From positions 1-50,477 of the IMG/VR virus record IMGVR_UViG_3300003635_000004: a DNA stretch of 50,477 nt. The stretch is one strand, 5' to 3'. The notes under the pieces are model-generated. The model made no database searches. It was not told the origin of the DNA and saw only the letters and a program-made list of their open reading frames with translations. Positions 3,064-47,428 of the stretch are shown in pieces (position 1 is the first letter of the stretch; the number at the start of each line of letters is the position of its first letter). A program made the position numbers and the translations under genes. The stretch is from a virus. Its lineage: Duplodnaviria > Caudoviricetes.

Positions 3064-3501
3064 ATGACATCTTCCGAACCCCTCTCTGATCGCTGCGGTG
3101 CGAAGTGCAAGAGTGGGGGCTACTGCACACAGTATCCAGTTAATGGATCCGAGCGGTGCCGGATGCATAGTGGGACCGCGGACAACACGGGTGAGAACAA
3201 CGGGAACTACAAACACGGCGCGTTCTCGAAGCACCTCCAGTCGGATCTGTCCGAGCGCGAGACAGAGGCCTTCGAGGACCTCGCTGGCGCCCTCGACGAT
3301 CAAGAGGCCGCCCAAGACGTCGTCCGAGAACTCGCGGCCGAGGCCCTGCTGAAGTACAAGCGGTCGAACGATGCTCGCTTCCTGCGGGAGGCCCGACAGT
3401 TGCTTTCCGAGTTCAACATCGCTGACGCAACCGACCACGTCGACGTCGACGGCGTCGAGGGACTGCTGATGAAAGATCTTCGCGAGGCCCACGATGAGTA
3501 G
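3064..3501 (+). CDS. terS: Terminase small subunit (HGGxSTG-like Cys/His domain)
   Basis: CGAKCKSGGYC...RCRMHSG...GNYKHGAFSK; directly upstream of large terminase. Confidence 0.75.
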   Translation: MTSSEPLSDRCGAKCKSGGYCTQYPVNGSERCRMHSGTADNTGENNGNYKHGAFSKHLQSDLSERETEAFEDLAGALDDQEAAQDVVRELAAEALLKYKRSNDARFLREARQLLSEFNIADATDHVDVDGVEGLLMKDLREAHDE

Positions 3502-12877: not shown

Positions 12878-14197
12878 ATGACTACGTACGGCAACACGTC
12901 ACGGATCTCCGTAACGACGGAGGGCGGCGGGATTGGGGCGCTGAACCTCGATTCCGTGCAGAAGGTCGTCCTCTTCGCCCGCGGCGATCCCGGCGCAGGC
13001 AGTGCATCGACAAACGACCCGACACGCGTGTCGGGGCCGGGCGAACTCGAATCGACGTTCGGCGCGGACACCGATATCGTGGAGGCATTCCGCGGGGCGG
13101 CTGCGAACGGCGTCTCCTACGACGTCCTCTACGGGGTGATGCCCGCGACTCAGAGCGCCACCGGCGAGGCAGTCGCCGGCGGTAGTGGCACGCTCGGCAA
13201 CACGCCCATCATCGAGGACACCGCTGAGCTCACGGTCACGAACACGACTGCGGGCGCCGACGAAACGCCGGTGTTCCGGTACGAGAGCCCGCCCCAGACG
13301 GGGTCGCTCGCGGACGACGAGGTGGCGATCAACCCGTTCACGGGCGAGGTCGAGGCGGGCGACGCCGACGACTACGAGGTCGACTACAAGTGGCTCGACT
13401 GGCAGTCGGCGTTCGACGCTGCGACGAACGTCGTCCAAGAGCAGGAGGAAGGCCTCTGGTACGTCCGCTCCGAATCGGAGTCGGCCGTGTCGGATGCTAT
13501 CGCGACGGCGACGCCGCTGCGGGAAAACCAGTGGAAGATGGTTCGCGTCGCCGGCGACGCGGAGCCGAACGCCACGCAGTCGGATGGGTCGGCAGAGATC
13601 GATGTCGGGAGCTACTCCGACAATCTCGACGACGACGCGCTGTTCGTCTTCGGGCCGGTCCGACAGGCCAACGCCGCCCATGCTGTGTCGGGCGGTATCG
13701 CGGGGGTGCTCGGTGGCGTCGCGACGACCGAGTCGATCCTCGGGCAGAGTCTGACGGGGTATGGCGACCTCGTCCAGACGCTGAACGTCCCCGATCAGGA
13801 GGATCTGGAAGACGCGGGCGTCATCCCCATCTCGGATGCCGGCGCCCCGAGCATCGAGAGCAACCTCTCGACGTCGACCGAGACGGGGTGGACGCGGTCG
13901 TACTTCGCGCGCCGACTCGCGGACCGACTGATCCTCGCGGCCCGCGCCATTGGCCGGGCGACGCGGGGCGACATCGCGAACGACAACACGACGCGGCTGA
14001 TCGAAGGCCGGCTCGGCGACGAGATTCTCGACCTCGTGGACGATGGCGTCCTCGAGCCCAACTCGCAGGCCGAGACCAACTGGTTCGTCACGGCGAGCGA
14101 GGACCCGGACAACCCGCGCAAGATCAACGTGAGCTTCGGCTTCACGCCGGAGGGCGTCGTCGACACGCTCGACTTCTCCGCCACGATCAACACCTGA
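12878..14197 (+). CDS. Tail sheath protein
   Basis: 439 aa; GELESTFG N-terminal motif, LEDAGVIPI..RRLADRL..INVSFGFTPEG C-terminal sheath pattern. Confidence 0.82.
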   Translation: MTTYGNTSRISVTTEGGGIGALNLDSVQKVVLFARGDPGAGSASTNDPTRVSGPGELESTFGADTDIVEAFRGAAANGVSYDVLYGVMPATQSATGEAVAGGSGTLGNTPIIEDTAELTVTNTTAGADETPVFRYESPPQTGSLADDEVAINPFTGEVEAGDADDYEVDYKWLDWQSAFDAATNVVQEQEEGLWYVRSESESAVSDAIATATPLRENQWKMVRVAGDAEPNATQSDGSAEIDVGSYSDNLDDDALFVFGPVRQANAAHAVSGGIAGVLGGVATTESILGQSLTGYGDLVQTLNVPDQEDLEDAGVIPISDAGAPSIESNLSTSTETGWTRSYFARRLADRLILAARAIGRATRGDIANDNTTRLIEGRLGDEILDLVDDGVLEPNSQAETNWFVTASEDPDNPRKINVSFGFTPEGVVDTLDFSATINT

Positions 14198-19417: not shown

Positions 19418-20743
19418 ATGTCGCTCACAGCCACCGGATACGACACACTGGACGAACAGGAGATCTACAATACGCTGGCGACGCTGTTTCGGGAGCGGGC
19501 CAAGACAGATGCGCCGATCCGGGACTACGCAGCCGTCTCGCAGGAACAGTCGACGCCGACGCTCCTCGAAGCGAGCCTCTTGGCCCAAGCCGCCACATTA
19601 GCGACAACCCAAGAGGAAGCGCTCGCTGAGGTCTCCGAATCCGGCTTCATCCAGACCGCGACTGGGGAGGCACTCACGCGGCTCGCCGAAGAACTCGGAC
19701 TATCCCGCCGTCCGCCAGTCGCCGCGACGGGCGTCGTCGAGTTCTCCCGTGATTCGGCGGCCAATCAAGACTACGTGATCCCCAGCGGGACGGTCGTCCA
19801 GACGGCGGGGACAGACCCAATTCGGTTCACGACTGTCACGACCGCGACGATCAGCTCCGGATCCACGTCGGCGCAGGCGACGATCAAGGCAACTGAGCCT
19901 GGGGACGAGGGGAACGTCGGTCCGGGGGCGATCACCGTGATGCCCAGCCCGCCAGCGGGCGTCCAGAACGTCACGAACCCTGATGCGACAGGCGACCCCT
20001 CGGTGACCGACACGCGGGGGGATCCGCTCGTGTCGGGGCGTGATCGCGAGTCCGACAGCAGTCTTCGGGAGCGAGCGCTTCAGCGTACTGACTTTGGGGA
20101 TACGGCTACAGCCGGCGCTGTGCGGACGTCACTCTCCAATATCGATGCGCTCGATTCCTATGCAGTCAACCATAACCCCGAGTCGACGGCCACGGCCGAC
20201 GGCCTTGATCCGTACCACACGGAGGTAATCGCCTACGGTGGCGCCGCGAAGGAGATCGTGCTCTCGCTGCGGGACGTGATGAGTGTTGGCGACTTCCTTC
20301 GACTGCAGTCCGTGCATGGCACGGCTGACTCCTACACGACGACCATCGACTTGCTCGAGGACTCCTACGACATCCCGATCAGCCGGCCGACAGTGAGCAA
20401 TGTCGATGTCGATGTGACGGTCTCGACGCAGTCGGAATGGGCTGGCACTGCCGCAGTGAAACGCGAAATCGTCGAGTACCTAGGTGGCACGGACGCTGAT
20501 GGCGAGTTCGTGCCTGGACTTGGCGTCGCGGCAGACGCCTACATCGGCGAACTCCGGAACCGAATCACGGATCTGGACGGTGTGGTGGCGCTGACGAATA
20601 TCGTGGTCGACGACAACGGCGATGGGACGACCAACACCACGGCCGATGCGAACGGTGTCGAGTACTACGATGTAGGCGCGGCCGAAGTCGTCGAGACGAA
20701 CGTCTCGGACGGCTCGGTGACGGTTACCCGCAACGCCATCTGA
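19418..20743 (+). CDS. Baseplate J-like protein
   Basis: TATGEALTRLA..RRPPVAATGVVEF..IPSGTVV..GRDRESDSSLRER motifs. Confidence 0.9.
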   Translation: MSLTATGYDTLDEQEIYNTLATLFRERAKTDAPIRDYAAVSQEQSTPTLLEASLLAQAATLATTQEEALAEVSESGFIQTATGEALTRLAEELGLSRRPPVAATGVVEFSRDSAANQDYVIPSGTVVQTAGTDPIRFTTVTTATISSGSTSAQATIKATEPGDEGNVGPGAITVMPSPPAGVQNVTNPDATGDPSVTDTRGDPLVSGRDRESDSSLRERALQRTDFGDTATAGAVRTSLSNIDALDSYAVNHNPESTATADGLDPYHTEVIAYGGAAKEIVLSLRDVMSVGDFLRLQSVHGTADSYTTTIDLLEDSYDIPISRPTVSNVDVDVTVSTQSEWAGTAAVKREIVEYLGGTDADGEFVPGLGVAADAYIGELRNRITDLDGVVALTNIVVDDNGDGTTNTTADANGVEYYDVGAAEVVETNVSDGSVTVTRNAI

Positions 20744-33047: not shown

Positions 33048-33625
33048 GCGACGACACCACGACGGAAGACAGTACTGACACGCTGACGCTGATCGCCCGC
33101 GGCCCGGCCGTAATCGAGCGCGAGCGGGACGAGGGCGCCCTGTCGGTGACGGTCACCGAAGACGTCGACCTGGAGGCCACGCTCGACGTCGATCCCGACT
33201 GGATCGAGAGGCACGGTGCCGTCCGCAAGGATACCGCCCTCCTGTTGCAGAGCGATATCGCGGAACTGGTCGTCGACACACTGTCTTCGGAGGACGCGAA
33301 CAACCCGAACTACCGCGCCGGCAACGAGCGTCACAGCGAGTGGACGCTCACGCTCACCGGTCGCGTCGACGACTGGATCAACGTGGCCGTTCGGCTCGCC
33401 CAGAACCAGATCTCTGTGGGGCCGGACGCGAGGATCATCACGTCGGCCTGCCACATCATCGATGACCTCGCGGAGTTCTCTCCGGATGATAGGCCGCGTC
33501 TCGCGATGCTCGATCTCGTCGAACAGTACGACGTGAGCGACTACACGCGGGGGTGGCTTCTCGACGAGCTGTCCGGCGACGACAATCGCGACACCGGCGT
33601 CGAGGAGGTGACTGCCGATGCCTGA
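33044..33625 (+). CDS. Hypothetical acidic protein
   Basis: Operon chain with SD motif. Confidence 0.65.
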   Translation: MSDDTTTEDSTDTLTLIARGPAVIERERDEGALSVTVTEDVDLEATLDVDPDWIERHGAVRKDTALLLQSDIAELVVDTLSSEDANNPNYRAGNERHSEWTLTLTGRVDDWINVAVRLAQNQISVGPDARIITSACHIIDDLAEFSPDDRPRLAMLDLVEQYDVSDYTRGWLLDELSGDDNRDTGVEEVTADA

Positions 33626-34313
33626 GCAGGAGCCTGCACCCATCGACTTCGAGACGGGTGTGCAGTACGCTCTGCAGCAGGCGAACGATCCCGACTCCCA
33701 CACGGAACTCGACGCCCACACGTTCCACCCGAGCCAGATCGCGCGCTGCCAGCGCCGCGCCTACTGCAGCAAGCTCGGGCTTGAGGACCAGTCGGACATC
33801 CTCGGCATCTTCCAGACGGGGACGCTTATCCACGAGTTCCTCGAGGAGCACATGGCCGAGCAGTTCCCCCACGCCGAGTTCGAGACGCCGATCACGCACG
33901 CCGAGCGCGGCGTCCAGTTCACCGGCCGCGCGGACTGCTACGATCCCGAGACGGGTTCCGTCTACGACTTCAAGACGCGGAACGGCTGGTACAACTTCGA
34001 CCCGCCAACGCAACGCCATCTCGATCAGGTGTACATCTACATGGCCGCCCTCGGTGCGGACAAGGGGCAGATCGTCTACCTCTCAAAGGGCGACCTAGAG
34101 GTGCGGACCTATCCCGAAGAGGGCTTCTTCGAGTTCGACGCCGAGCGGTTCGGCACGCTCGTCGAGAAGGCTAGTCGGATCAAGCACGCTATCGAGACCG
34201 AAGGACTGCCCAGCGGGCCGGATGACATCCCGTTCGAGACGTGTGACTGCTACTTCTGCAGTCAGGAGACGCTCGTCGACGCCGACGCGTTCCCAGGTGA
34301 TCGCGATGCGTGA
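33618..34313 (+). CDS. Solo Cas4-like PD-(D/E)XK exonuclease
   Basis: PSQIARCQRR, GTLIH, GRAD, YDFKT, QVYIY, C-terminal CDCYFC (1+3 Cys Fe-S pattern). Confidence 0.85.
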   Translation: MPEQEPAPIDFETGVQYALQQANDPDSHTELDAHTFHPSQIARCQRRAYCSKLGLEDQSDILGIFQTGTLIHEFLEEHMAEQFPHAEFETPITHAERGVQFTGRADCYDPETGSVYDFKTRNGWYNFDPPTQRHLDQVYIYMAALGADKGQIVYLSKGDLEVRTYPEEGFFEFDAERFGTLVEKASRIKHAIETEGLPSGPDDIPFETCDCYFCSQETLVDADAFPGDRDA

Positions 34314-35173: not shown

Positions 35174-35358
35174 GCGGCGATGTGCTCCCTCACGAGATTC
35201 GAGCCATCTTCGCGGGCTGTCTGATCGGCTTTGCGATCGTGTGCGCCCGAAACTACCTCACCCGAGGTGGCGCCGGCATTCTTCTGGTAGGTGTCGTCAG
35301 CCTACTCGTCGGTACCGCAATCGCGACCCACGTCACGACGGAGGTGCGGGCGCTATGA
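35170..35358 (+). CDS. Small two-TM membrane protein
   Basis: Two hydrophobic segments; ATGA overlaps. Confidence 0.55.
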   Translation: MSGDVLPHEIRAIFAGCLIGFAIVCARNYLTRGGAGILLVGVVSLLVGTAIATHVTTEVRAL

Positions 35359-35840
35359 AGGTCGGCTTCAAGGAACTCCCCAACATCCCGGTCGAGAAGA
35401 TGGCGGTCATCGAGGCCGAGGAGTTCGAAATCGGCGCGTGTGTCGGCTACCGCTGCCAGCTGTGTGGCGAAGCCGATGAGACGCTCCGCCAGCTGTTCCA
35501 CAAGTCTGACTGCGATCTCGCGGGGGTGCACGGCCGACGGTTCTTCGGAGACGACGCGAATCTCGGCTCCTCGAGCGATGGCCGACTCTCCGCGGAACCC
35601 GATCCGGACAACCCGCTGTGGCTCGTCGTGAGTGGCGAAACGGATCGCGCGGACGACGTCTACAACGGGGAGGTCGTCGGGATCCTCTGCCGTTGCGGGA
35701 ATCTCGACGATGATGCCTTCGATATCGTCCACGACGAGAACTGTGAGCTTGCCGACGAACACAGCGATCTGGGGACGACCGACGTCGAGGACCTGCAGGG
35801 CATCGACGAGGCGGTCGCGGACGGCGGTCAGGCAGGGTAG
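35355..35840 (+). CDS. Hypothetical protein with two Cys/His repeats
   Basis: CQLCG..HKSDC and CRCG..HDENC. Confidence 0.65.
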   Translation: MKVGFKELPNIPVEKMAVIEAEEFEIGACVGYRCQLCGEADETLRQLFHKSDCDLAGVHGRRFFGDDANLGSSSDGRLSAEPDPDNPLWLVVSGETDRADDVYNGEVVGILCRCGNLDDDAFDIVHDENCELADEHSDLGTTDVEDLQGIDEAVADGGQAG

Positions 35841-35974
35841 CCCACCCAAACGCTTTCGTTCTTGCATATCGACCTGTCACGTGCCCGCGGGGAAGGCACG
35901 CAGTACTCCGGGCACCTAGAGCTCCACTCGCATTCTCTCACTTCGGCGCTCACAGAGAAAGATGCTGGATTCGT

Positions 35975-36017
35975 GTTACCCCACGAATCCGAATCGGCGT
36001 CTGAATTGTGGGGTAAC
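35975..36017. repeat. GTTACCCCAC-N23-GTGGGGTAAC inverted repeat, copy 1
   Basis: Direct reading; TTTCCGGAACC box follows at 36034. Confidence 0.9.
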
Positions 36018-36203
36018 TCACAACCCCACTCACTTTCCGGAACCGACCTCCCATCGTTTCCAATACTCCACACGCAGATGTTCCAGAATAGTGGGCGATT
36101 ACTTTTCTGCGTTCACGGTCGAAAGCCACTGGCTCGCCGGCGAGCCACTCCACGCAGGCGCGGTTCGGAGAAGGGGGTGCCTCCCGCGCCTGTTTTCGCA
36201 CCC

Positions 36204-36246
36204 GTTACCCCACCCGTTCGACTCCGATCCCCACTCGTGGGGTAAC
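36204..36246. repeat. GTTACCCCAC-N23-GTGGGGTAAC inverted repeat, copy 2
   Basis: Direct reading; TTTCCGGAACCCCCC at 36269 and TTTATG at 36292 upstream of orc1. Confidence 0.9.
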
Positions 36247-36321
36247 GATACTTCCCCGAAGCCCGCCCTTTCCGGAACCCCCCTCCCATCGTTTATGTTC
36301 CTCCCCGGACCACTCCGGAAT

Positions 36322-37356
36322 GTGATACTCGACCGGCAAGTCCTCGATCCCACTGTCGTGCCAGATCAGGAGCTGATCGTCCATCGCGGGCGAGAGCTCG
36401 AGGACTGCCGAGCCGCGCTCGATTTGCTCGCTGACGCACCAACGAATTCTTGCCTCGTCATTCACGGCCCGCCAGGCACGGGCAAGACGATGATCGCTCG
36501 CGAAGTACTGCGACGCCTCCGCCAGCAGAACACGCTCCGAACAGCCTACGTCGACTGTTGGGAGCACTATACCGCCAACCACGCCCTGTACGAAGTCGCA
36601 GACGCGCTCAACGCCGGCGGCATCATCCACCGCAATTCAACGCCGACACAGGAACTGACTGCGGCGCTGCAAGCCCATCCAGAGCAGCGACGAGTGGCCG
36701 TCCTCGACGAGGCCGAGATGATCATCGACGCGTCTGTGTTCCGGACGCTTCGCGACGCGCCCAAACTGGATATCGTCTGCATCGTCAACGACACGGGCGA
36801 GCTTATTGAGGAGCATCCTGACGATGTCCGCGCGGCACTCGATCTCGCGACTTCGCTGCACTTCGGTCAGTACTCTGTCCAGCAGTTGATCGCGATTCTC
36901 TCCGCTCGCGCCGAGCATGGGATTCGGGATGGCGTGGTTCGCAAGCGGGCGATCGAACGCTTCGCCGAGGCCGCTGGCGGCGACGCCCGGCTCGGGATCG
37001 CGGCACTTCGAGCTGCTGCCGAGTCAGCTGTGGAGGCCTCGCGTGACGTGATCTATCCGCAGCATGTCGAGCCCCCTGTCACGAACGCCGCACGGCGATT
37101 ACACCGGCAGACGCTGGACCGGCTTTCAGAGCACCAGGAGCAATTGTATCAGCTGATCGTCGATGCCGACGAGATCGAGCCGGGCGAGTTGTACGCTCGG
37201 TATGCCGACTCAGTCGCGGACCCGAAATCTGAGCGGACGGTGCGGACCTACCTGACGAAGATGGCTCACTACGGCCTCGTTACTGTTGAGGGCGCGAGTC
37301 GAGACCGGCGTTACACTCTGGACCGCGGGGGGTATGTCGATCCGGGCGTGGTGTGA
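36322..37356 (+). CDS. orc1/cdc6: Orc1/Cdc6 family AAA+ ATPase
   Basis: VLDPTVVP..HRGREL, Walker A GPPGTGKT, Walker B VLDEAE, GGDARLGI, C-terminal wHTH; GTG start 30 nt after TATA-like box. Confidence 0.92.
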   Translation: MILDRQVLDPTVVPDQELIVHRGRELEDCRAALDLLADAPTNSCLVIHGPPGTGKTMIAREVLRRLRQQNTLRTAYVDCWEHYTANHALYEVADALNAGGIIHRNSTPTQELTAALQAHPEQRRVAVLDEAEMIIDASVFRTLRDAPKLDIVCIVNDTGELIEEHPDDVRAALDLATSLHFGQYSVQQLIAILSARAEHGIRDGVVRKRAIERFAEAAGGDARLGIAALRAAAESAVEASRDVIYPQHVEPPVTNAARRLHRQTLDRLSEHQEQLYQLIVDADEIEPGELYARYADSVADPKSERTVRTYLTKMAHYGLVTVEGASRDRRYTLDRGGYVDPGVV

Positions 37357-38313
37357 TTAGCTACTTGACGGGGAGTACGTGTCCACAGTCTCGTCGTTTA
37401 TGATATATCGGAGTTCCATGTCCCCTGCGTTGATTGCTTGAACCTGAGACTGCGTGAGATCCGATGCCGTCGCGATTCGCCATAATACCTGCCGCTCGCT
37501 ATTTGCACGAACGGTTATCTCTTCCTCGTGGGTTGCGGCCACCTCGCCATCAATAACCAACTCAACACGCATCGTGTTCGTGATCTCGCTATCAGTCGGG
37601 TTCGTGACAGTCGCATCAGTAGAAATCGTGTTTGATGTCGCGTCCATGCCACCATCAACTTCGAGCTGTGGCTCGGCGGTGAGCAGTTCTGGACCGACAA
37701 CCACCCCAGCAGCGATCACGCCGACCACCACGATCCCTGCTGCGACATAGCGCAACGGCAGATTGATACCACCGCCCGAAGGCGCTGCGCCCCCTCCACC
37801 GAGATAAACCCCACCGAGGCCAGTGAGACCGGTCGGGAGTGCCACGGCAATAATTGGGATGATGTACTCTCCAATAGGCAAGCCACCAGAGGAGCCACCA
37901 TTTGTCGTGGTCTGGCCCGCGGCGTCGGTGGCGGCGCTGCTGCCACCACCTGCACCGCCACCAGCGACAGCTGCGACCGCGATACTCAGCGCCAGGACGA
38001 CGACGAGGATCATCACGAAGTAGCCAGCGACTGAGCCGAGTACGCCGGCGAGATATGACTCCGAGGTGCGTCCCATGCCATCACCAGTTCGAAGCCCGGA
38101 GATCAAGCCGATAATGGGGCCGAGCAAGAACGCCACCGTAAGAATCACCAGCACAAGAAGCCCGCTGAAGATGGCGCTTCCGGAACTCAGTTGCGTCATC
38201 GCGACACCACCAGTTGCCCCGATCCCGACGCCCGCAAGAGCGAATATCCCGACTACCTGACCGATAGTACTGAGTGGAACGCCAGACCCATCTGCCGTTT
38301 CGGAACCCGACAT
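37357..38313 (-). CDS. Multi-pass membrane protein with C-terminal extracellular Ig/CARDB-like domain (cargo)
   Basis: About five hydrophobic segments, DATVTNPTD beta domain; own TATA-like CTTTATCA; lower GC. Confidence 0.75.
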   Translation of the reverse strand: MSGSETADGSGVPLSTIGQVVGIFALAGVGIGATGGVAMTQLSSGSAIFSGLLVLVILTVAFLLGPIIGLISGLRTGDGMGRTSESYLAGVLGSVAGYFVMILVVVLALSIAVAAVAGGGAGGGSSAATDAAGQTTTNGGSSGGLPIGEYIIPIIAVALPTGLTGLGGVYLGGGGAAPSGGGINLPLRYVAAGIVVVGVIAAGVVVGPELLTAEPQLEVDGGMDATSNTISTDATVTNPTDSEITNTMRVELVIDGEVAATHEEEITVRANSERQVLWRIATASDLTQSQVQAINAGDMELRYIINDETVDTYSPSSS

Positions 38314-38370
38314 GGCTTGAGTGTCAAATGTGAGACTGATAAAGGCTTGCCCGTAAAGCCACGCTCTGAA

Positions 38371-38413
38371 GTTACCCCACGTATTCGAACACTAGTGCAA
38401 CTCGTGGGGTAAC
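38371..38413. repeat. GTTACCCCAC-N23-GTGGGGTAAC inverted repeat, copy 3
   Basis: Direct reading. Confidence 0.9.
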
Positions 38414-38432
38414 TAACTGGCGCCCGGCGAGT

Positions 38433-38475
38433 CTTAACCAACACCCAACTGCACCGGGCCGCTCTGTTGGTTAAC
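38433..38475. repeat. Variant inverted repeat CTTAACCAAC-N23-GTTGGTTAAC, copy 4
   Basis: Same 23-nt spacer, same two C-to-A changes mirrored in both arms; TTTCCGGAACCCCCC follows at 38490. Confidence 0.75.
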
Positions 38476-38489
38476 ACTCCTTCAGAAGC

Positions 38490-38523
38490 TTTCCGGAACC
38501 CCCCTGAAAACGACTTTTTATAT
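38490..38523 (+). promoter_or_regulatory. Promoter pointing antisense into repressor gene
   Basis: TTTCCGGAACCCCCC box, purine-rich BRE-like GAAAA, TTTTTATA; no typical sense gene downstream. Confidence 0.6.
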
Positions 38524-38552
38524 GGTGGGCGTAGCAGGATGTGATGGTCGCG

Positions 38553-38819
38553 TCACTCGGGCTCCTCGACCGGCTCAAGTGTCGAGGCGTCGAGCTCCTC
38601 GTCCAAGTAGGCGCGGCCGGCGTCAGTGATGGCGTAGAGTCCCCGAGAAATTCGTTCGACAAGGCCGTAATTGCGAAGCGAGCGAAGACGATCTTGGCAA
38701 TGGCCAGCGCTAGGCCCGCCGAAATCCTCGATCGCCTGTGGTGTCAGATTCCCATGTTCCCTCAGAAGCTCAAGTATTGGGTCATCCGAGGGAACCATCC
38801 AATCCGCACGCTTCCGCAT
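38553..38819 (-). CDS. PhiH1 repressor-like wHTH protein, copy 2
   Basis: MRKRADWMVPSDDPILELLREHGNLTP..RLRSLRNYGLVERISRGLYAITDAGRAYLDEELD. Confidence 0.88.
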   Translation of the reverse strand: MRKRADWMVPSDDPILELLREHGNLTPQAIEDFGGPSAGHCQDRLRSLRNYGLVERISRGLYAITDAGRAYLDEELDASTLEPVEEPE

Positions 38820-38869
38820 ATCGTCTTTGTCGTCCGGGGTCATGCTGATAATCGTACCCATTACCACGT

Positions 38870-38945
38870 CTTTCGGCTTTATCCACCTTAATTACTGCTT
38901 AAATCTCAGTGTTCGATGGGAAACTCTCAGTAAGGTATTTACCAC
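38870..38945. promoter_or_regulatory. Divergent promoter/operator region 2
   Basis: AT-rich; TCTCAGT twice, TTACTG/CAGTAA inverted pair, TATTTACC TATA-like at 38936-38943. Confidence 0.65.
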
Positions 38946-38965
38946 GGGCGACATAACCACTTGAC

Positions 38966-39022
38966 GACCCGGCCCTTGCGGGTAGAAGGTGCCCGCCGTG
39001 TAGGAGCACGACGGGCTGGGTC
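38966..39022 (+). ncRNA. Structured 5' leader RNA (three-way junction), copy 2
   Basis: P1 GACCCGGCCC/GGGCTGGGTC, P2 GCGGGTA/TGCCCGC, P3 CGTG/CACG; begins about 23 nt after TATA. Confidence 0.6.
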
Positions 39023-39053
39023 TACTCCCCACGAGGGAGATTTGGAACGACCC

Positions 39054-39593
39054 ATGACAGAATCTATCGAGGGTGGCAAAAAGAATACTGCCACTACGAC
39101 GGACGCATCAGGTGTTAATCAGGAGTTAGAGAGTGCATTTCCGGAGGATGTGGTCCTCCGACGTGAGGGGCAGGACTGCGAGTTCTACTACACGATCCAG
39201 AACGGCACGCTCGTCGAGCGGGCAGTGTTCGACGATGGCCATATCGGCGGCGTCTACCAAGCCGGTCACGACGTCGACCCCGAGGCCGACGACATCGACG
39301 TCCTCGATCCGGAGGCGTGGCCCACCCGCGAGGATGACTTCGACACGGGGGCGCCCGTGTTGATGACCGACGGCGGCGGCTTCGACATCACGCTCAACCG
39401 AACCTTCGTCCGCACCGACGACGGCGAAGAGAAAGGAATCTGGAAGGCGACTGTCGACAACGCGCAGGCGTACCGCGAGATGGGCGGGGAGACGGCAGCC
39501 GGCGCGCTTCACGCACTTGCCCGCGAGTTCGAAGACAAGTTCTGCGAAGGCGACGGCGAGGCAGAGGAGTTGACGCGAGGGGGTGACGCGTAG
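39054..39593 (+). CDS. Hypothetical acidic protein
   Basis: First gene after leader; contains LMTDGG linker typical of haloarchaeal mobile-element proteins. Confidence 0.65.
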   Translation: MTESIEGGKKNTATTTDASGVNQELESAFPEDVVLRREGQDCEFYYTIQNGTLVERAVFDDGHIGGVYQAGHDVDPEADDIDVLDPEAWPTREDDFDTGAPVLMTDGGGFDITLNRTFVRTDDGEEKGIWKATVDNAQAYREMGGETAAGALHALAREFEDKFCEGDGEAEELTRGGDA

Positions 39594-42900: not shown

Positions 42901-43314
42901 ATGGCCATGTCCGAGGAGTCCTCCAGTCGTGCAAGCGGGACGAAGTACACGGTGAGCGCGCGGATGCGACACGCCGCCGAGGCCGACCTCCCCGTCCTCA
43001 CTGACCACGCCCACGACAAGTGGGATGAGCGGGTGCCGTCCGAAGCAGTCAGCGCCGAGGCCGCCCTCGAGGCGGCCACGCGGTTGACCGATCTCGCCTC
43101 GCATGGCCACTGGCGGGCTGCCGGGCGGGATCAACGTCTCCCCGACGCAGTATGGGTCTACCGCGGGATTCTCGATCAGCGGGCCTACACGGCCGCATTC
43201 GTCGAGCATTCCGGCGCGATCACGACCATCCTCCGCGCCTCAGAGATGACGCACCGCCCGATGGCCGCCTACGTCCGCACTGCGGCGCGCAGCCGGGTGA
43301 ACCATCATGAGTAG
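42901..43314 (+). CDS. Hypothetical protein (RelE/DUF4258-like pattern)
   Basis: LTDHAHDKWDERV...GAITTIL. Confidence 0.5.
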   Translation: MAMSEESSSRASGTKYTVSARMRHAAEADLPVLTDHAHDKWDERVPSEAVSAEAALEAATRLTDLASHGHWRAAGRDQRLPDAVWVYRGILDQRAYTAAFVEHSGAITTILRASEMTHRPMAAYVRTAARSRVNHHE

Positions 43315-43480
43315 TGAATCGATATCGCGAGATACGGTTGATGAGGCCCCGGTCGAGGATCGTCTCCGGGATCTGGAAGAGATACGGGAGGACCTCGAAC
43401 TCGTCGCCAATTCGGAGGCCGCGTATGCGACGTACGCGGAGTCACTGCTGTCGAAACTGGAGGCTGTTGAGGATGCGTGA
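43307..43480 (+). CDS. Small acidic protein convergent on integrase (57 aa)
   Basis: Hand translation MSSESISRDTVDEAPVEDRLRDLEEIREDLELVANSEAAYATYAESLLSKLEAVEDA. Confidence 0.55.
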   Translation: MSSESISRDTVDEAPVEDRLRDLEEIREDLELVANSEAAYATYAESLLSKLEAVEDA

Positions 43481-43481
43481 G

Positions 43482-44732
43482 TCAGTCGTCGGCTTGGAGG
43501 CGGAGGACGGCGTCGTCGCCGAGGAACCGCTCGATCCGCTGGATCGCGGCGCCGACATCTTCGGGGACACGTCGCTGGTCGCTCATCGCAGTATCGCGCT
43601 GCTCCTCAACGATCTCGGTAGCGGCGTGGGAGAGCGACTGGCCGCACCAGACACAAGCCGGTTCGTCGTGCGGCGTTTCCTTATCGCACCGCGGACAGAC
43701 GACCGGCGCGAGGTCTTCGGGGTCGTCTTCGGAGACTTCGACCCCATGTGCGCGCGCGATTTCGCGGTCGTTGGCCTCCTGAAACACAGAGACGTAGCGT
43801 GCAGCGATGTCCGAGCCACGACTCCAGCCGTGATGGTCCTCGAGGTGGTTCTGGGAGACGTTCTGGGAGGCGAGATGCGATGCCGAGGACTTCCGGAAGT
43901 TCGACGGTGTGACCGGTCGCTCGACGCCGGCATCACGGGCGCGGTCTTTCAGGATGTCTCGGATGTAGTTGTTCGACACCTGGGCGGTGCTGTCGAGACG
44001 GCACCACAGCGGGTCGTCGTGACTGTCGCCGGGGTGGAGGGACCGCCACTGGTTGACGTACGGGACCGACGGGACGAGGACGGCCGAGCGCCGGCCACGC
44101 TTCCCGTCGACGGTGACTTGCAGGCCGTAATCATGGTCGGCGAACGACCCGAGTGTCATGTCGAACAGTTCGTGAGGGCGCGGGCCGAGGTCCCACGCGA
44201 GGGCGATCAGCGCCTTGTCTCGGTAGTTGTGGCAGGCATCGAGCATCGGCTTCACGTCCGACTCCCAGCGGAGCATCTTCGCGGGGTCGGGCGCGGGGTC
44301 ATAGTTTTCAGGGTAGCCTCCTGGGACCCACGCCAGCGACTCGACGATCCCATCGGGGTCGGTGCCGATTTTCCCGAACTGGCGGAGGGCCACGCGATAG
44401 TCCTTGTTCGTCTCAGGCGAATCGTTCTTCGCGGTATTGACGTGCGCGACCAGTTGTTCGGCAGCGTCGCGATCGTCGAGGGCGTCGGAAAGACCGCCGA
44501 CCTCAACGGCGAGTGTGACCAGTCGCATGAGGTACTTCTCGTGGGACCAGACGGAGCAGTACGAACTCCCGAGAAGTCGGATCTGGTCACTCATCGCCAA
44601 GAGCGCCTCGGCGTCGGCGCCGCTGATGCGTGGGTCGGGGACCTCGTCGACGTCCTCGACGTCGTCGATAGCACCCTCGTCGCCGAGGCGAGCGCGCAAC
44701 CGTGTGATGCTTTGGTCGGGCTGATCGGTCAT
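43482..44732 (-). CDS. int: Tyrosine integrase, SNJ2-like, with C-terminal zinc ribbon
   Basis: LGPRPHEL, DGKRGRR, PSNFRKSSAS, HHGWSRGS, ARYV; CPRC..CVWC. Confidence 0.92.
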   Translation of the reverse strand: MTDQPDQSITRLRARLGDEGAIDDVEDVDEVPDPRISGADAEALLAMSDQIRLLGSSYCSVWSHEKYLMRLVTLAVEVGGLSDALDDRDAAEQLVAHVNTAKNDSPETNKDYRVALRQFGKIGTDPDGIVESLAWVPGGYPENYDPAPDPAKMLRWESDVKPMLDACHNYRDKALIALAWDLGPRPHELFDMTLGSFADHDYGLQVTVDGKRGRRSAVLVPSVPYVNQWRSLHPGDSHDDPLWCRLDSTAQVSNNYIRDILKDRARDAGVERPVTPSNFRKSSASHLASQNVSQNHLEDHHGWSRGSDIAARYVSVFQEANDREIARAHGVEVSEDDPEDLAPVVCPRCDKETPHDEPACVWCGQSLSHAATEIVEEQRDTAMSDQRRVPEDVGAAIQRIERFLGDDAVLRLQADD

Positions 44733-44769
44733 CCACGCCGACCCACTCAGTCGGGGCATGTAAACATCT

Positions 44770-44792
44770 GGTTCGGAGCCCACCCCGGGCAC
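44770..44792 (+). other. attP core matching the 3' end (T-loop to acceptor) of a tRNA, probably haloarchaeal elongator tRNA-Met
   Basis: GGTTCGGAGCCCACCCCGGGCAC directly upstream of int; tRNA identity recalled from memory, not searched. Confidence 0.75.
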
Positions 44793-44866
44793 TCATCAAA
44801 TTGTTGTCATGCCCACGTAAAAAGGCAGAGTGGTGACGCCCACTCGCCCGCGGGGGGTGCGTTGGC

Positions 44867-47428
44867 ATGACGCCGGGCCTCACCGCCTCACAGCAGCTCC
44901 CGGTTACTGCCGACGTTCGTGTCAGGATAGATGGGTCGACCCCCGCGGCACTCTGGCAGGAGATCGCGACGGCAGAGCACTTCCAGCGCGCGCTCATCGA
45001 CGCTGTTCGCGAGCTCCTCGTCGGCGTGCCCCATCACGCACGCCTACGGACGCTCGTCGATGCGGGCGTCACCGCCGCCGAGGGTGGATACGCATCGGTG
45101 ATCGCCGCGCTCGGCCGGCCGCCAGAGACCGAGCGGCACCAGCAGGCACTCACGACGACCGCTCGGTTTGGTGCTGCCGAGGCGTCGCTCCTGGGCCACC
45201 TCGACCTCGACGCGATCGCGGAGGGGCCACTCGCCGTCCTTGACGCTGTCGAGCGAGTGCCGACCATCGCCGTGCGGGTGTCGGACGCGTTTAGAGACCG
45301 CAGACACCAGGCCCGCGCCGATGTCCTCTCGCTGCTCGCCCGTCTCGGGCAGGCCTGCGATGTCCGCATCGTCACAGGGCGGCTGACCGCCCGCTGGCTC
45401 GCTACGGAACATCGGGCACAACTTCCGGCGGCGTTTAGCGAGTCGGTCGGTGCGGGGCAGGAGGAAGCCCCGCCCATCGACGAGGCGGTCGTCCAGGCCC
45501 GCGAGGCGTTCGCCCCCGACAGCCGCGCGGTGTCGATACTCCGGCGACTGGCCGATGAGCCGGTCGAGACGCTCGCCTACAGCGAACTTGTCGCGGTGAC
45601 AACCGTCTCGAAGAGTCGCGTCTCCCAGCTCTTGGGGCGCCTCGAGGAGTACTCACTCGTCGAGCGGTACGGCCCGCGGACTGACCAACGCGTCGACCTC
45701 CGACCAGCCGGATCGGCGTTCGTGGACGCTCTCGACGCCGATATCGGTCGACAGGCTGACCTCGATGCCGCGTTTAGCGAGACCGGACAGAAGCAGACAC
45801 AGTGCCGTGTAACCCCGCGCGCACACGTGACCCCCTCCCCGGACGGCGCCGACGCCGCTGACGGGGCGGCCGGCCCGTACCGAACCCGCTACTGCAACCG
45901 CCCGGCGCATCATGCCGCCGCTGCGACGGCTGAATCGGGGTCGATCACCGCCATCGAGGCGCCCTTCGACACCGCTGACCCCCGGACGCGGTGGGTATCG
46001 TACAACTACTGCCGTGACGAGGTCGTCGTCGCTGTCCAGGCCAAAACACCCCTCCAGTATGTGACCAGCACCGCGCTGAGTTTAGCGTCGCCACGGCTGT
46101 TCGACCGCGCCCTGCCGGTGGATCGCCTCGACGACATCGACACGCCGCCCGAGATTCTTCGGGATGCGCGGTGCATCGGCGGCCTCTCCAGCGAGGCAGC
46201 CGCGGACGGGCAGACGCTCCGCGATGCGTTGATCGAGTGGGGCGAGACAATCGCGGAGTCGACGACGAAACTCCGTCGCGGAGATCACGAGCAGGACCGC
46301 GACCGCTTCCGCAGCGAGATCATGCGCTCGGCGCACGGCCTCGCTGGGACGATCATCCACCTGCTCGATGTCGTCGGCGTCGACGTGGTGCGCGAACTGC
46401 GTGTGCCGGCCGGCCTCCCCCACGACCGCCTCGCCGGCATCGCGAAGACAGTGAGCATCGCGACGGCCATCCAGTCGGAGTATGCTGACCGCACGCTCTA
46501 CCGCCAAGTGTTCGAGCGACGCGAGGAGAAGCGAACGAGCGCCTTCGGCGTCGACGTCGATGCCGCCGACCCGCTGGGGCGGTACATCGGCGGGCTCGTA
46601 CTCCGCGGCCCAGACGCCAATCGGCTTGCCCGGCACGTTGAGGGGCAACTCCCCTCGCCCGCTCCGGTCCACGAGGACGCCCCCGAAATCGCGGTTCGGA
46701 TCTCCGTTCGGACGCCTGACCGCTCGACCTACGCCGAGACGGTCGCACGGATGGGCCGCGAGAAGCAGCTCGACCCGACTCGGGAAGCTGTCACCGTCTT
46801 TCGGGCACTCACTGGCTCACCCTACGCCGTTGCCGAGGCGATGCACGCGCTCGGTTCTGAGCCGGTTGCCCGTGATATCTGCCTCGACGAGGTCCGCGCG
46901 GCACTCGCGACGCTGGACGCTGACCGGTTGCTCCCCGCGGCGCCGCCGACGGTCGGGAAGACTATCCGGGCGCTACTGCGGTCGTCGACAGCGCTCACGA
47001 AGGCGGAGCTAGCCGAGGCGGCGGGTGTGTCGACGCGGTCGCTCCGCCGCCACGTGGACATCCTCGCCGCCCTCACGCTCGTCGAGGAGACCGACGACGG
47101 CCTTCGCGTCGCCCTACCGAGCCGCGAAGAGCGAGGCGACGCCATCGAGCCGGCAGTACTCGCGGATCGGCAGGCAGCCCGACAAGACATCCTGTTCGAT
47201 ATTGCGCTGACGCTGACGTCCGATGCCGGCCTCCCCGAGAGATTACGACAGGTGTGGACTGGCGGCTACGACGAGCATCGACTCCGAGCGGTTCTCCCCC
47301 GCATCGAGCCCTGGATTCGGGTCGCGAGGGCGCTGTGTGACGACCCGGATCCGACACCGGCCGCGATCACGGTGGGGAATCCGACCGCGCAGCAAGCGGT
47401 GCAGACTGCTACAGGAGGCTACACATGA
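44867..47428 (+). CDS. repH: RepH-like replication protein with two wHTH domains
   Basis: 853 aa; wHTH at LAYSELVAVTTVSKSRVSQLL and LTKAELAEAAGVSTRSLRRH; AHGLAGTIIHLLD segment recalled from haloarchaeal RepH-like proteins. Confidence 0.7.
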   Translation: MTPGLTASQQLPVTADVRVRIDGSTPAALWQEIATAEHFQRALIDAVRELLVGVPHHARLRTLVDAGVTAAEGGYASVIAALGRPPETERHQQALTTTARFGAAEASLLGHLDLDAIAEGPLAVLDAVERVPTIAVRVSDAFRDRRHQARADVLSLLARLGQACDVRIVTGRLTARWLATEHRAQLPAAFSESVGAGQEEAPPIDEAVVQAREAFAPDSRAVSILRRLADEPVETLAYSELVAVTTVSKSRVSQLLGRLEEYSLVERYGPRTDQRVDLRPAGSAFVDALDADIGRQADLDAAFSETGQKQTQCRVTPRAHVTPSPDGADAADGAAGPYRTRYCNRPAHHAAAATAESGSITAIEAPFDTADPRTRWVSYNYCRDEVVVAVQAKTPLQYVTSTALSLASPRLFDRALPVDRLDDIDTPPEILRDARCIGGLSSEAAADGQTLRDALIEWGETIAESTTKLRRGDHEQDRDRFRSEIMRSAHGLAGTIIHLLDVVGVDVVRELRVPAGLPHDRLAGIAKTVSIATAIQSEYADRTLYRQVFERREEKRTSAFGVDVDAADPLGRYIGGLVLRGPDANRLARHVEGQLPSPAPVHEDAPEIAVRISVRTPDRSTYAETVARMGREKQLDPTREAVTVFRALTGSPYAVAEAMHALGSEPVARDICLDEVRAALATLDADRLLPAAPPTVGKTIRALLRSSTALTKAELAEAAGVSTRSLRRHVDILAALTLVEETDDGLRVALPSREERGDAIEPAVLADRQAARQDILFDIALTLTSDAGLPERLRQVWTGGYDEHRLRAVLPRIEPWIRVARALCDDPDPTPAAITVGNPTAQQAVQTATGGYT

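Follow-up and report, generated by a model that had tools for sequence, protein, structure and literature searches.

The window analysed here is the whole of the IMG/VR virus record IMGVR_UViG_3300003635_000004, one linear contig of 50,477 bases with a GC content of 63.7%, from a haloarchaeal tailed virus. Our subject is a putative promoter at 38490-38547 that points into the 3′ end of a repressor gene on the opposite strand. The locus begins with orc1/cdc6 on the + strand, which runs from a GTG codon at 36322 to 37356 and encodes a 344-amino-acid protein with Pfam AAA_22 and Cdc6_lid domains. Between orc1 and the putative antisense promoter stands a membrane protein gene on the minus strand (37357-38313), with its own TATA element (TTTATC, minus strand) at 38338-38343. 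A spacer of 239 bases separates it from the gene for a wHTH (winged helix-turn-helix) repressor, also on the minus strand (38553-38867), with a likely start at ATG 38861 and its stop codon at 38553-38555. A divergent region of 186 bases then leads to the + strand early operon, in which g39054 is followed by genes for a CxxC protein and PCNA and by more genes.

Both regulatory proteins have counterparts in SNJ2, a betapleolipovirus whose lysogeny-induction module is orf4-orf7-orf8, according to the available portions of its description (Chen et al. 2023, PMC10123103). The wHTH protein, which matches the transcriptional regulator family phrog_2440 (E 1.1e-32), is 41% identical to SNJ2 Orf4 (tblastn, E 3e-9), 52-55% identical to the Harhisp1 and Humcor1 proteins and 57% identical to BJ1 ORF20. 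Orc1 shares 30% identity with SNJ2 Orf8 over 336 amino acids and is closest to the proteins of the metagenome loci L043/L044 (48%) and L045 (46%). The membrane-gene slot is also filled in BJ1 (ORF17) and in Harhisp1 (a membrane protein).

A putative twin of the orc1 promoter faces the repressor gene

The initial annotation proposed that a promoter mirroring that of orc1 fires antisense through the repressor gene, and all of its coordinates hold. The 16-base Orc box TTTCCGGAACCCCCCT at 38490-38505 (+ strand) is an exact copy of the box in the orc1 promoter (36269-36326, + strand; box 36269-36284, TATA element TTTATG 36292-36297, ATGTGAT at 36320, GTG at 36322). The genome contains exactly two exact copies of this sequence, at 36269 and 38490, both on the + strand. 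With up to three mismatches allowed, three matches were found against 0.26 expected, a number reached by none of 100 shuffles; the third copy (36034-36049, + strand) has two mismatches and a weak TATA, and the 55-codon frame behind it is not coding-like (codon score -13.3 bits).

Nine bases (38506-38514) separate the end of the antisense box from the TATA box TTTTTATA of this P7-type promoter (38515-38522, + strand), compared with seven bases in the orc1 promoter. The initial annotation called this the best TATA of the region, and TTTATA at 38517 is the sole copy on either strand of the whole genome. Since 0.93 copies are expected anywhere in the genome, what is noteworthy is its place 12 bases behind the box, not its existence. 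Two of the five ATGTGAT words in the window lie at 36320 and 38539, and the GTG stands 53 bases from the start of the box in the orc1 promoter and 51 bases in the antisense promoter, as first reported. The promoter is also aimed as annotated, at the 3′ end of the minus-strand repressor gene. From this anatomy we tentatively regard the site as a real promoter of the P7 kind, the kind named after the orf7 promoter of SNJ2.

At both promoters the word ATGTGA (36320-36325 and 38539-38544) sets an ATG directly before a TGA and overlaps the in-frame GTG. The orc1 genes of relatives start with ATGAT(A/T/C), so the orc1 start in the window looks like a 2-base insertion rescued by the GTG.

Related loci share the twin boxes and carry a small gene

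We fetched 9 IMG/VR and 27 genome loci by the wHTH protein and four metagenome loci by Orc1. Leaving out two duplicates (L008, which is BJ1, and L040, which is L015) and L035, where orc1 lies on the other side, 16 distinct loci remained in which orc1 converges on the wHTH gene.

Across 18 loci, the orc1 promoter and the small-gene promoter were found to have a box in common, about 10 bases upstream of TATA, which differs between genomes: TCCCGGAAGT in Harhisp1, CCCCGGAAG in the Humcor1 group, CCCCTCCGAA in BJ1, TTTTGTGAACCCCCC in L043 and TTTCCGGAACCCCCC in the window. The word TTTTGTGAACCCCCC occurs at both promoters in L043 and L045. Cognate promoter pairs had a mean alignment score of 11.47, compared with 7.25 ± 1.98 for 306 non-cognate pairs, and none of 20,000 permutations reached the cognate mean; individually, 8 of the 18 cognate pairs exceeded the 95th percentile of the non-cognate ones. 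Low cognate scores (5.0) were those of SNJ2 and of L042, for which the orc1 start used is probably wrong. The box and TATA at 38490-38522 occupy the same slot, in the same layout, as in 17 relatives, and at sequence level agree with a P7 promoter.

The available portions of the SNJ2 report state that the P7 promoter, which expresses the small repressor antagonist Orf7, is activated after mitomycin C by Orf8, the Orc1 protein of that virus, and depends on it, and that the Orf8 binding site is unknown (PMC10123103). Because Orf8 activates the orf7 promoter and the box is shared with the orc1 promoter, we infer that the shared box is a candidate Orc1 site. A genome-specific box shared in 18 loci is a concrete candidate, testable by footprinting and box swaps.

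What the promoter precedes sets the window apart. All 16 other loci have a small gene between the P7-type promoter and the 3′ end of the wHTH gene, either Orf7/Harhisp1_085-like or BJ1 ORF18-like, the latter often followed by a CxxC ORF19-like gene. The ORF18-like family (BJ1, L003 2534-2998; L006, L014, L015, L019, L026, L032, L038 and L041) aligned with the Orf7 family at an hhalign probability of 93.5% (E 2.2e-7, 38 columns), which makes its members remote Orf7 homologues and extends the full wHTH-Orf7-Orc1 module to the siphoviruses BJ1 and Humcor1 and to many proviruses. The Orf7-like gene lies directly 3′ of orc1 in L043/L044 and L045. Fifteen loci were measured, every one of the 16 except BJ1, and in 12 of them the converging gene stops, by approximate alignment ends, within about a dozen bases of the wHTH stop codon, so that transcripts in those loci must overlap.

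Nothing coding follows the promoter in the window, where the wHTH stop comes only about 30 bases after TATA. The initial annotation saw no typical protein gene here and left it to a genome search whether an Orf7 homologue lies elsewhere; neither has come to light. A tblastn search of the window with 10 small proteins gave a best E of 0.008, off-site at 35259-35411, and hidden Markov models (HMMs) of three families, run over all stop-to-stop segments of the six frames, gave nothing better than E 0.2. PHROGs and Pfam named no antirepressor among the neighbouring genes.

Predicted convergent transcription through the repressor gene

The starts of orc1 and of the membrane gene each lie 24 bases behind the TATA hexamer, a spacing that fits leaderless transcripts. 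The same spacing would place the antisense start at 38547 (38545-38546 in other TATA registers), and together with the ATGTGAT word it marks out a segment at 38539-38547 (+ strand) with a predicted start at about 38544-38547. With the small gene absent, a P7-type transcript would thus start 6 to 9 bases before the repressor stop codon and run antisense through the whole gene. The first AUG of a transcript from 38546/7 is at 38629 and opens a 2-codon frame. Between 38547 and 39053 the + strand never has four or more T in succession, so the transcript may read on into the early operon. The predicted non-coding transcript (38547-39053, + strand) would be antisense to the whole wHTH gene and head towards that operon.

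The sole T4 run behind the wHTH stop, and its likely terminator, is at 38507-38510 on the minus strand, in the gap that separates box from TATA in the opposing promoter. From the position of this run and the missing + strand T4, each transcript would cross the control region of the other, a geometry of mutual interference. Opposed promoters with overlapping transcripts are in this way predicted from sequence only.

Past the wHTH gene, the antisense transcript may enter the 5′ leader RNA that stands before the early operon, a conserved structured element (38962-39056, + strand; ending at ATG 39054), which scores 43.5 bits (E 1.5e-9) against R1, a covariance model built from 13 BJ1-like leaders. 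R1 matched 28 times in 42 sources, in the window and in 27 other places including L003 3404-3507. The leader folds into a three-way junction and a 3′ hairpin. In the alignment fitted to the model, pairing holds in 96.6% of cells, and changes on both sides are seen in 22 of 24 pairs, counts that are generous because this alignment leans toward the model; none of 500 shuffles reached this pairing, slid controls paired at 31-53%, and the closing helix covaries on a plain MAFFT alignment too. The word right before the ATG (GACCC; GAAGCC in other lineages) repeats the 5′ arm of closing helix P1 and co-varies with it, which suggests two alternative pairings. No Rfam family matched anywhere in the window at the gathering threshold, nor within 35800-39200 when E values up to 1 were allowed.

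Together these features point, tentatively, to an Orc1-dependent promoter that yields a non-coding RNA antisense to the repressor and possibly reads into the early operon. Orc1 would bind the shared box both at its own promoter and at the antisense promoter and, once activated, would fire the latter; convergent transcription and antisense RNA would then lower repressor expression. During lysogeny the repressor transcript, ending between box and TATA, would hold the antisense promoter down. Read-through into the leader RNA, g39054 and PCNA may further bypass the repressed early promoter. The initial annotation had suggested antisense RNA or transcriptional collision in place of an antirepressor. 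We regard as possible, with somewhat more doubt than confidence, the full version of this idea: an Orc1-triggered exit from lysogeny without an antirepressor protein, in which head-on transcription and antisense RNA silence the repressor and the same transcript reads into the early operon.

Several observations weigh against this proposal. In SNJ2, a frameshift in orf7 abolished derepression despite the induced promoter transcribing toward orf4 in cis, according to the available portions of the report (PMC10123103), which also place 578 bases with hicAB between orf7 and orf4. By that account transcription alone is insufficient in SNJ2, and Orf7 protein is needed there. The window is the sole locus without the small gene among the 17 of this architecture, and the completeness of the record is estimated at 92%. 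The transcription start is uncertain by a few bases, and if it fell at A38544, a 115-amino-acid frame would be carried on a leaderless mRNA. Strand-specific codon usage of the wHTH gene is unusually weak (+3.7 bits, against 40.9 ± 16.9); the opposite strand scores +0.3 bits, so the strands are not separable, nor are they separated by the GC content of third codon positions (0.64 and 0.66). Of sequencing runs containing window DNA there are three, all from one study and none recorded as RNA.

One further point of this kind concerns the 3′ end of the repressor gene. In the wHTH family, synonymous conservation is raised over the final 25 codons (alignment A4, columns 86-110; motif AYLDEELDAxELEP; 0.587 versus 0.416, Mann-Whitney p about 1e-4), so some overlapping function there is possible. 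A metagenome contig (run X1, depth 18) follows the window to 38646 and rejoins it at 39046. From these alignments, a simpler reason for the conservation looks like recombination at the conserved block, by which the DNA-binding part and the operators would be swapped between conserved flanks.

Alternative explanations

The strong rival is that the promoter is a relic, a possibility that the initial annotation had itself named. One or more Orf7-like genes would have been deleted recently and the promoter would survive by chance, firing or not, without a role having evolved for it; the virus would then either be defective in induction or take some other route. That none of the 17 loci except the window lacks the small gene is what makes this rival strong, and such rarity suits a recent loss no less than an alternative that evolved. 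The distance of about 30 bases from TATA to the wHTH stop is as would follow a clean loss of 250-500 bases. The need for Orf7 protein in SNJ2 favours the relic too, as does the finding that 4 of 31 Orc1-encoding proviruses lack orf7, for which replacement or inactivation was suggested (PMC10123103, in the portions available). Against it stand the intactness of the site, with a box identical to the orc1 copy at 16 of 16 positions, preserved spacing and the best TATA of the genome, and the otherwise complete look of the genome, which has an integrase, structural genes and intact orc1 and repressor genes. Moreover, related strains of this virus occur in metagenome contigs at depth 12-20, so the lineage is not a lone dead provirus. 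None of these three points dates the loss. On balance we consider a relic somewhat unlikely. Were the promoter only that, its interest would be modest, and the twin-box rule and the conserved leader RNA would stay useful all the same. The window is a natural Orf7-less variant with its promoter intact, and thus a natural experiment for telling the effects of convergent transcription from those of Orf7 protein.

A second alternative assigns the box to replication. Three inverted-repeat modules of the form GTTACCCCAC-N23-GTGGGGTAAC, each upstream of one Orc box, were found around orc1: module A (35975-36017), module B (36204-36246) and module C (38371-38413), the last of which has the membrane-gene promoter on one side and the antisense promoter on the other. 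Their six GTTACCCCAC arms, which flank orc1, are exact, and the 10-mer has no other exact copy in the window. The modules may be elements of an origin, resembling origin recognition boxes (ORBs), or operators. A stem of 15 bases with 93% complementarity and a 21-base loop (38429-38479) lies between module C and the Orc box.

By this alternative the box and the inverted repeats would be Orc1 sites for a replication origin or autoregulation only, the TATA-like run would belong to the A+T-rich terminator region of the repressor, and there would be no + strand promoter. Haloarchaeal ORBs are recognized as repeats with a G-string adjoining an orc/cdc6 gene (PMC3528665). Repeats of this type do adjoin orc1 here: the three boxes have runs of C4-C6, the C6 run of the box being a G-string on the opposite strand that recalls that of haloarchaeal ORBs, and the GTTACCCCAC arms are confined to the flanks of orc1. 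In L016, moreover, an A+T-rich word stands directly behind the wHTH stop without orc1 nearby. However, the three boxes are all direct and none is inverted, and the GTTACCCCAC arms, which are inverted, enclose 23-base spacers of ordinary composition. Nor does any marked A+T-rich stretch lie between the boxes or an A+T-rich unwinding stretch beside the modules, the lowest GC content of any 60 bases near orc1 being 0.47. The same box-to-TATA layout precedes real genes in relatives, and a role in an origin is compatible with one in a promoter. That the site serves only as an origin or in autoregulation is accordingly improbable.

The initial annotation had also offered the overlapping open reading frame (ORF) at 38541-38891 (+ strand; 116 amino acids, net basic) as the inducer, but this ORF is probably no gene. 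It runs antisense to the wHTH gene and in register with it, so that a stop in it would require wHTH to use TTA, CTA or TCA. These codons are missing from 226 of 495 control stretches of 104 codons taken from likely genes, so an open antisense frame of this length is ordinary. The ORF matched no Pfam or PHROG family. Its identity to relatives is 28-40%, where the wHTH frame reaches 52-65%, and it is often open in relatives but broken early in six (L016, L023, L028, L031, L034 and L035), including, at codon 40, the closest wHTH relative, L016. Over eight loci with three control genes, the third codon position of wHTH, which is codon position 1 of the second frame, was the least conserved (0.50, versus 0.72 and 0.80), a pattern that fits the wHTH frame only. 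Identity at fourfold sites of wHTH (0.49) was not above that of the three control genes (0.50-0.59). No signal of purifying selection in the second frame was seen among these eight relatives, which include no close relative of the window. A complex prediction of the wHTH protein with the 115-amino-acid frame scored 0.00 with an uncertain partner fold, and speaks neither for nor against binding.

The equivalent frame in Humcor1 was called a gene by its annotators, HrrHm1_215 (MW344765; L006 4917-5315, record 33586-33984). It lies opposite an unannotated wHTH homologue (52% identity, E 1e-22), and is probably a shadow frame.

Translation of the frame from ATG 38544 to 38888 (115 amino acids) as a newly born repressor antagonist, for which one may cite its open frame beginning within 3 bases of the predicted start, the leaderless mRNAs usual here, the Humcor1 annotation and the oddly symmetric codon usage of wHTH, is on this evidence most improbable.

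Genomic context of the locus

The remainder of the genome fits the description of a temperate myovirus-like virus, by virtue of its sheath, Baseplate_J, portal and integrase genes. The tail sheath gene (12878-14197) is 39% identical to the annotated HGTV-1 sheath, a Baseplate_J protein is encoded at 19418-20743, and a portal protein is also present; the sheath and Baseplate_J genes uphold the view of the initial annotation that the module here resides in a myovirus. A tyrosine integrase is encoded on the minus strand at 43782-44261 (Pfam Phage_integrase, E 2.4e-13; open frame 436 amino acids). The longest ORF here, of 518 amino acids on the + strand (43314-44870), is a shadow of this integrase and a further long antisense frame. 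The PCNA gene has about 70% DNA identity to its phiCh1 and phiH counterparts.

Neither Orc1 nor the membrane protein retrieved a relative when scanned against IMG/VR. When the intergenic regions were compared by blastn with every fetched locus, nothing similar turned up outside the window.

In the divergent region between the wHTH gene and the early operon, TCTCAGT occurs twice, 23 bases apart (38906-38935). The same region of BJ1 (L003, about 3330-3375) has ACTGAG and CTGAG words. These words may be operator half-sites of the repressor.

Comparison with known switches

A limited literature set was searched for accounts of the twin box, of antisense arrangements lacking Orf7 and of the BJ1 and Humcor1 modules, and none was returned. 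The arrangement in the window is a variant of the SNJ2-type module. It resembles SNJ2 in its homologues of wHTH (41%) and of Orc1/Cdc6 (30% over 336 amino acids) and in a promoter placed downstream of orc1, convergent with the repressor gene and running in the same direction as the operon the repressor faces. It departs from SNJ2 in having no Orf7-like gene in any frame and in a promoter that abuts the repressor stop codon, where SNJ2 has orf7 and hicAB in between. The pairing of repressor and integrase also differs: the wHTH gene of this myovirus-like genome is divergent from the g39054/PCNA early operon, with the integrase about 5 kb off, whereas the SNJ2 repressor faces the integrase.

The closest architectural parallels are BJ1 ORF16-ORF20, Humcor1, Harhisp1 and 12 provirus loci, which share with the window the order of orc1, an opposite-strand membrane gene, a box and TATA promoter and a converging wHTH gene, together with the twin boxes and the same structured leader before the early operon. 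They differ in the one or two small genes (Orf7-, ORF18- or CxxC ORF19-like) behind the promoter, of which the window has none. The full three-part module, with true Orf7 homologues, thus exists in the tailed viruses BJ1 and Humcor1. The statement of the initial annotation that the module is described for pleolipoviruses needs a qualifier, since the available portions of the SNJ2 paper already speculate on head-tailed viruses and a wHTH-Orc1 pair has been proposed in MSTV1. This tailed archaeal virus of Methanobrevibacter smithii, from a different host lineage, has wHTH and Orc1/Cdc6 proteins (ORF6/ORF7) and no recognised Orf7. The parts of its description available include no promoter analysis, and its authors do not decide whether Orc1 acts by itself or by way of a third factor (PMC11375127).

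The initial annotation invoked phiH as a precedent for antisense control. The precedent holds in so far as phiH, a haloarchaeal myovirus whose PCNA operon is related, has a cis-antisense RNA, T(ant), in its lysogeny control (MK002701 annotation). It is a loose one, as T(ant) serves immunity by complementing the early lytic transcript T1 over its first 151 bases and is not directed against the repressor; moreover, phiH has repH, and no Orc1 is involved.

By analogy, the arrangement in the window, if working, would be more like the lambda P_RE promoter or the coliphage 186 pR-pL switch than like T(ant). The convergent pR-pL switch of coliphages 186 and P2 acts by transcriptional interference between two convergent promoters of opposite programmes with overlapping transcripts. 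Those promoters face each other across 5′ ends, whereas the overlap in the window would span the whole repressor gene from its 3′ end. Lambda P_RE, like P_aQ, is an activator-dependent promoter whose transcript runs antisense through an opposing regulator gene and then into the genes it turns on. The window would share with P_RE a promoter behind the 3′ end of the opposing regulator, full antisense overlap, and then genes of the other programme in sense. The decision runs toward lysogeny in lambda and would run toward induction here, with archaeal machinery and Orc1 as the activator, and the window is read from its DNA alone. If the proposal is true, the shared box would be the long-sought Orc1 recognition site of the SNJ2-type pathway, and the locus would mirror lambda P_RE and be the first switch in an archaeal virus to work by convergent transcription.

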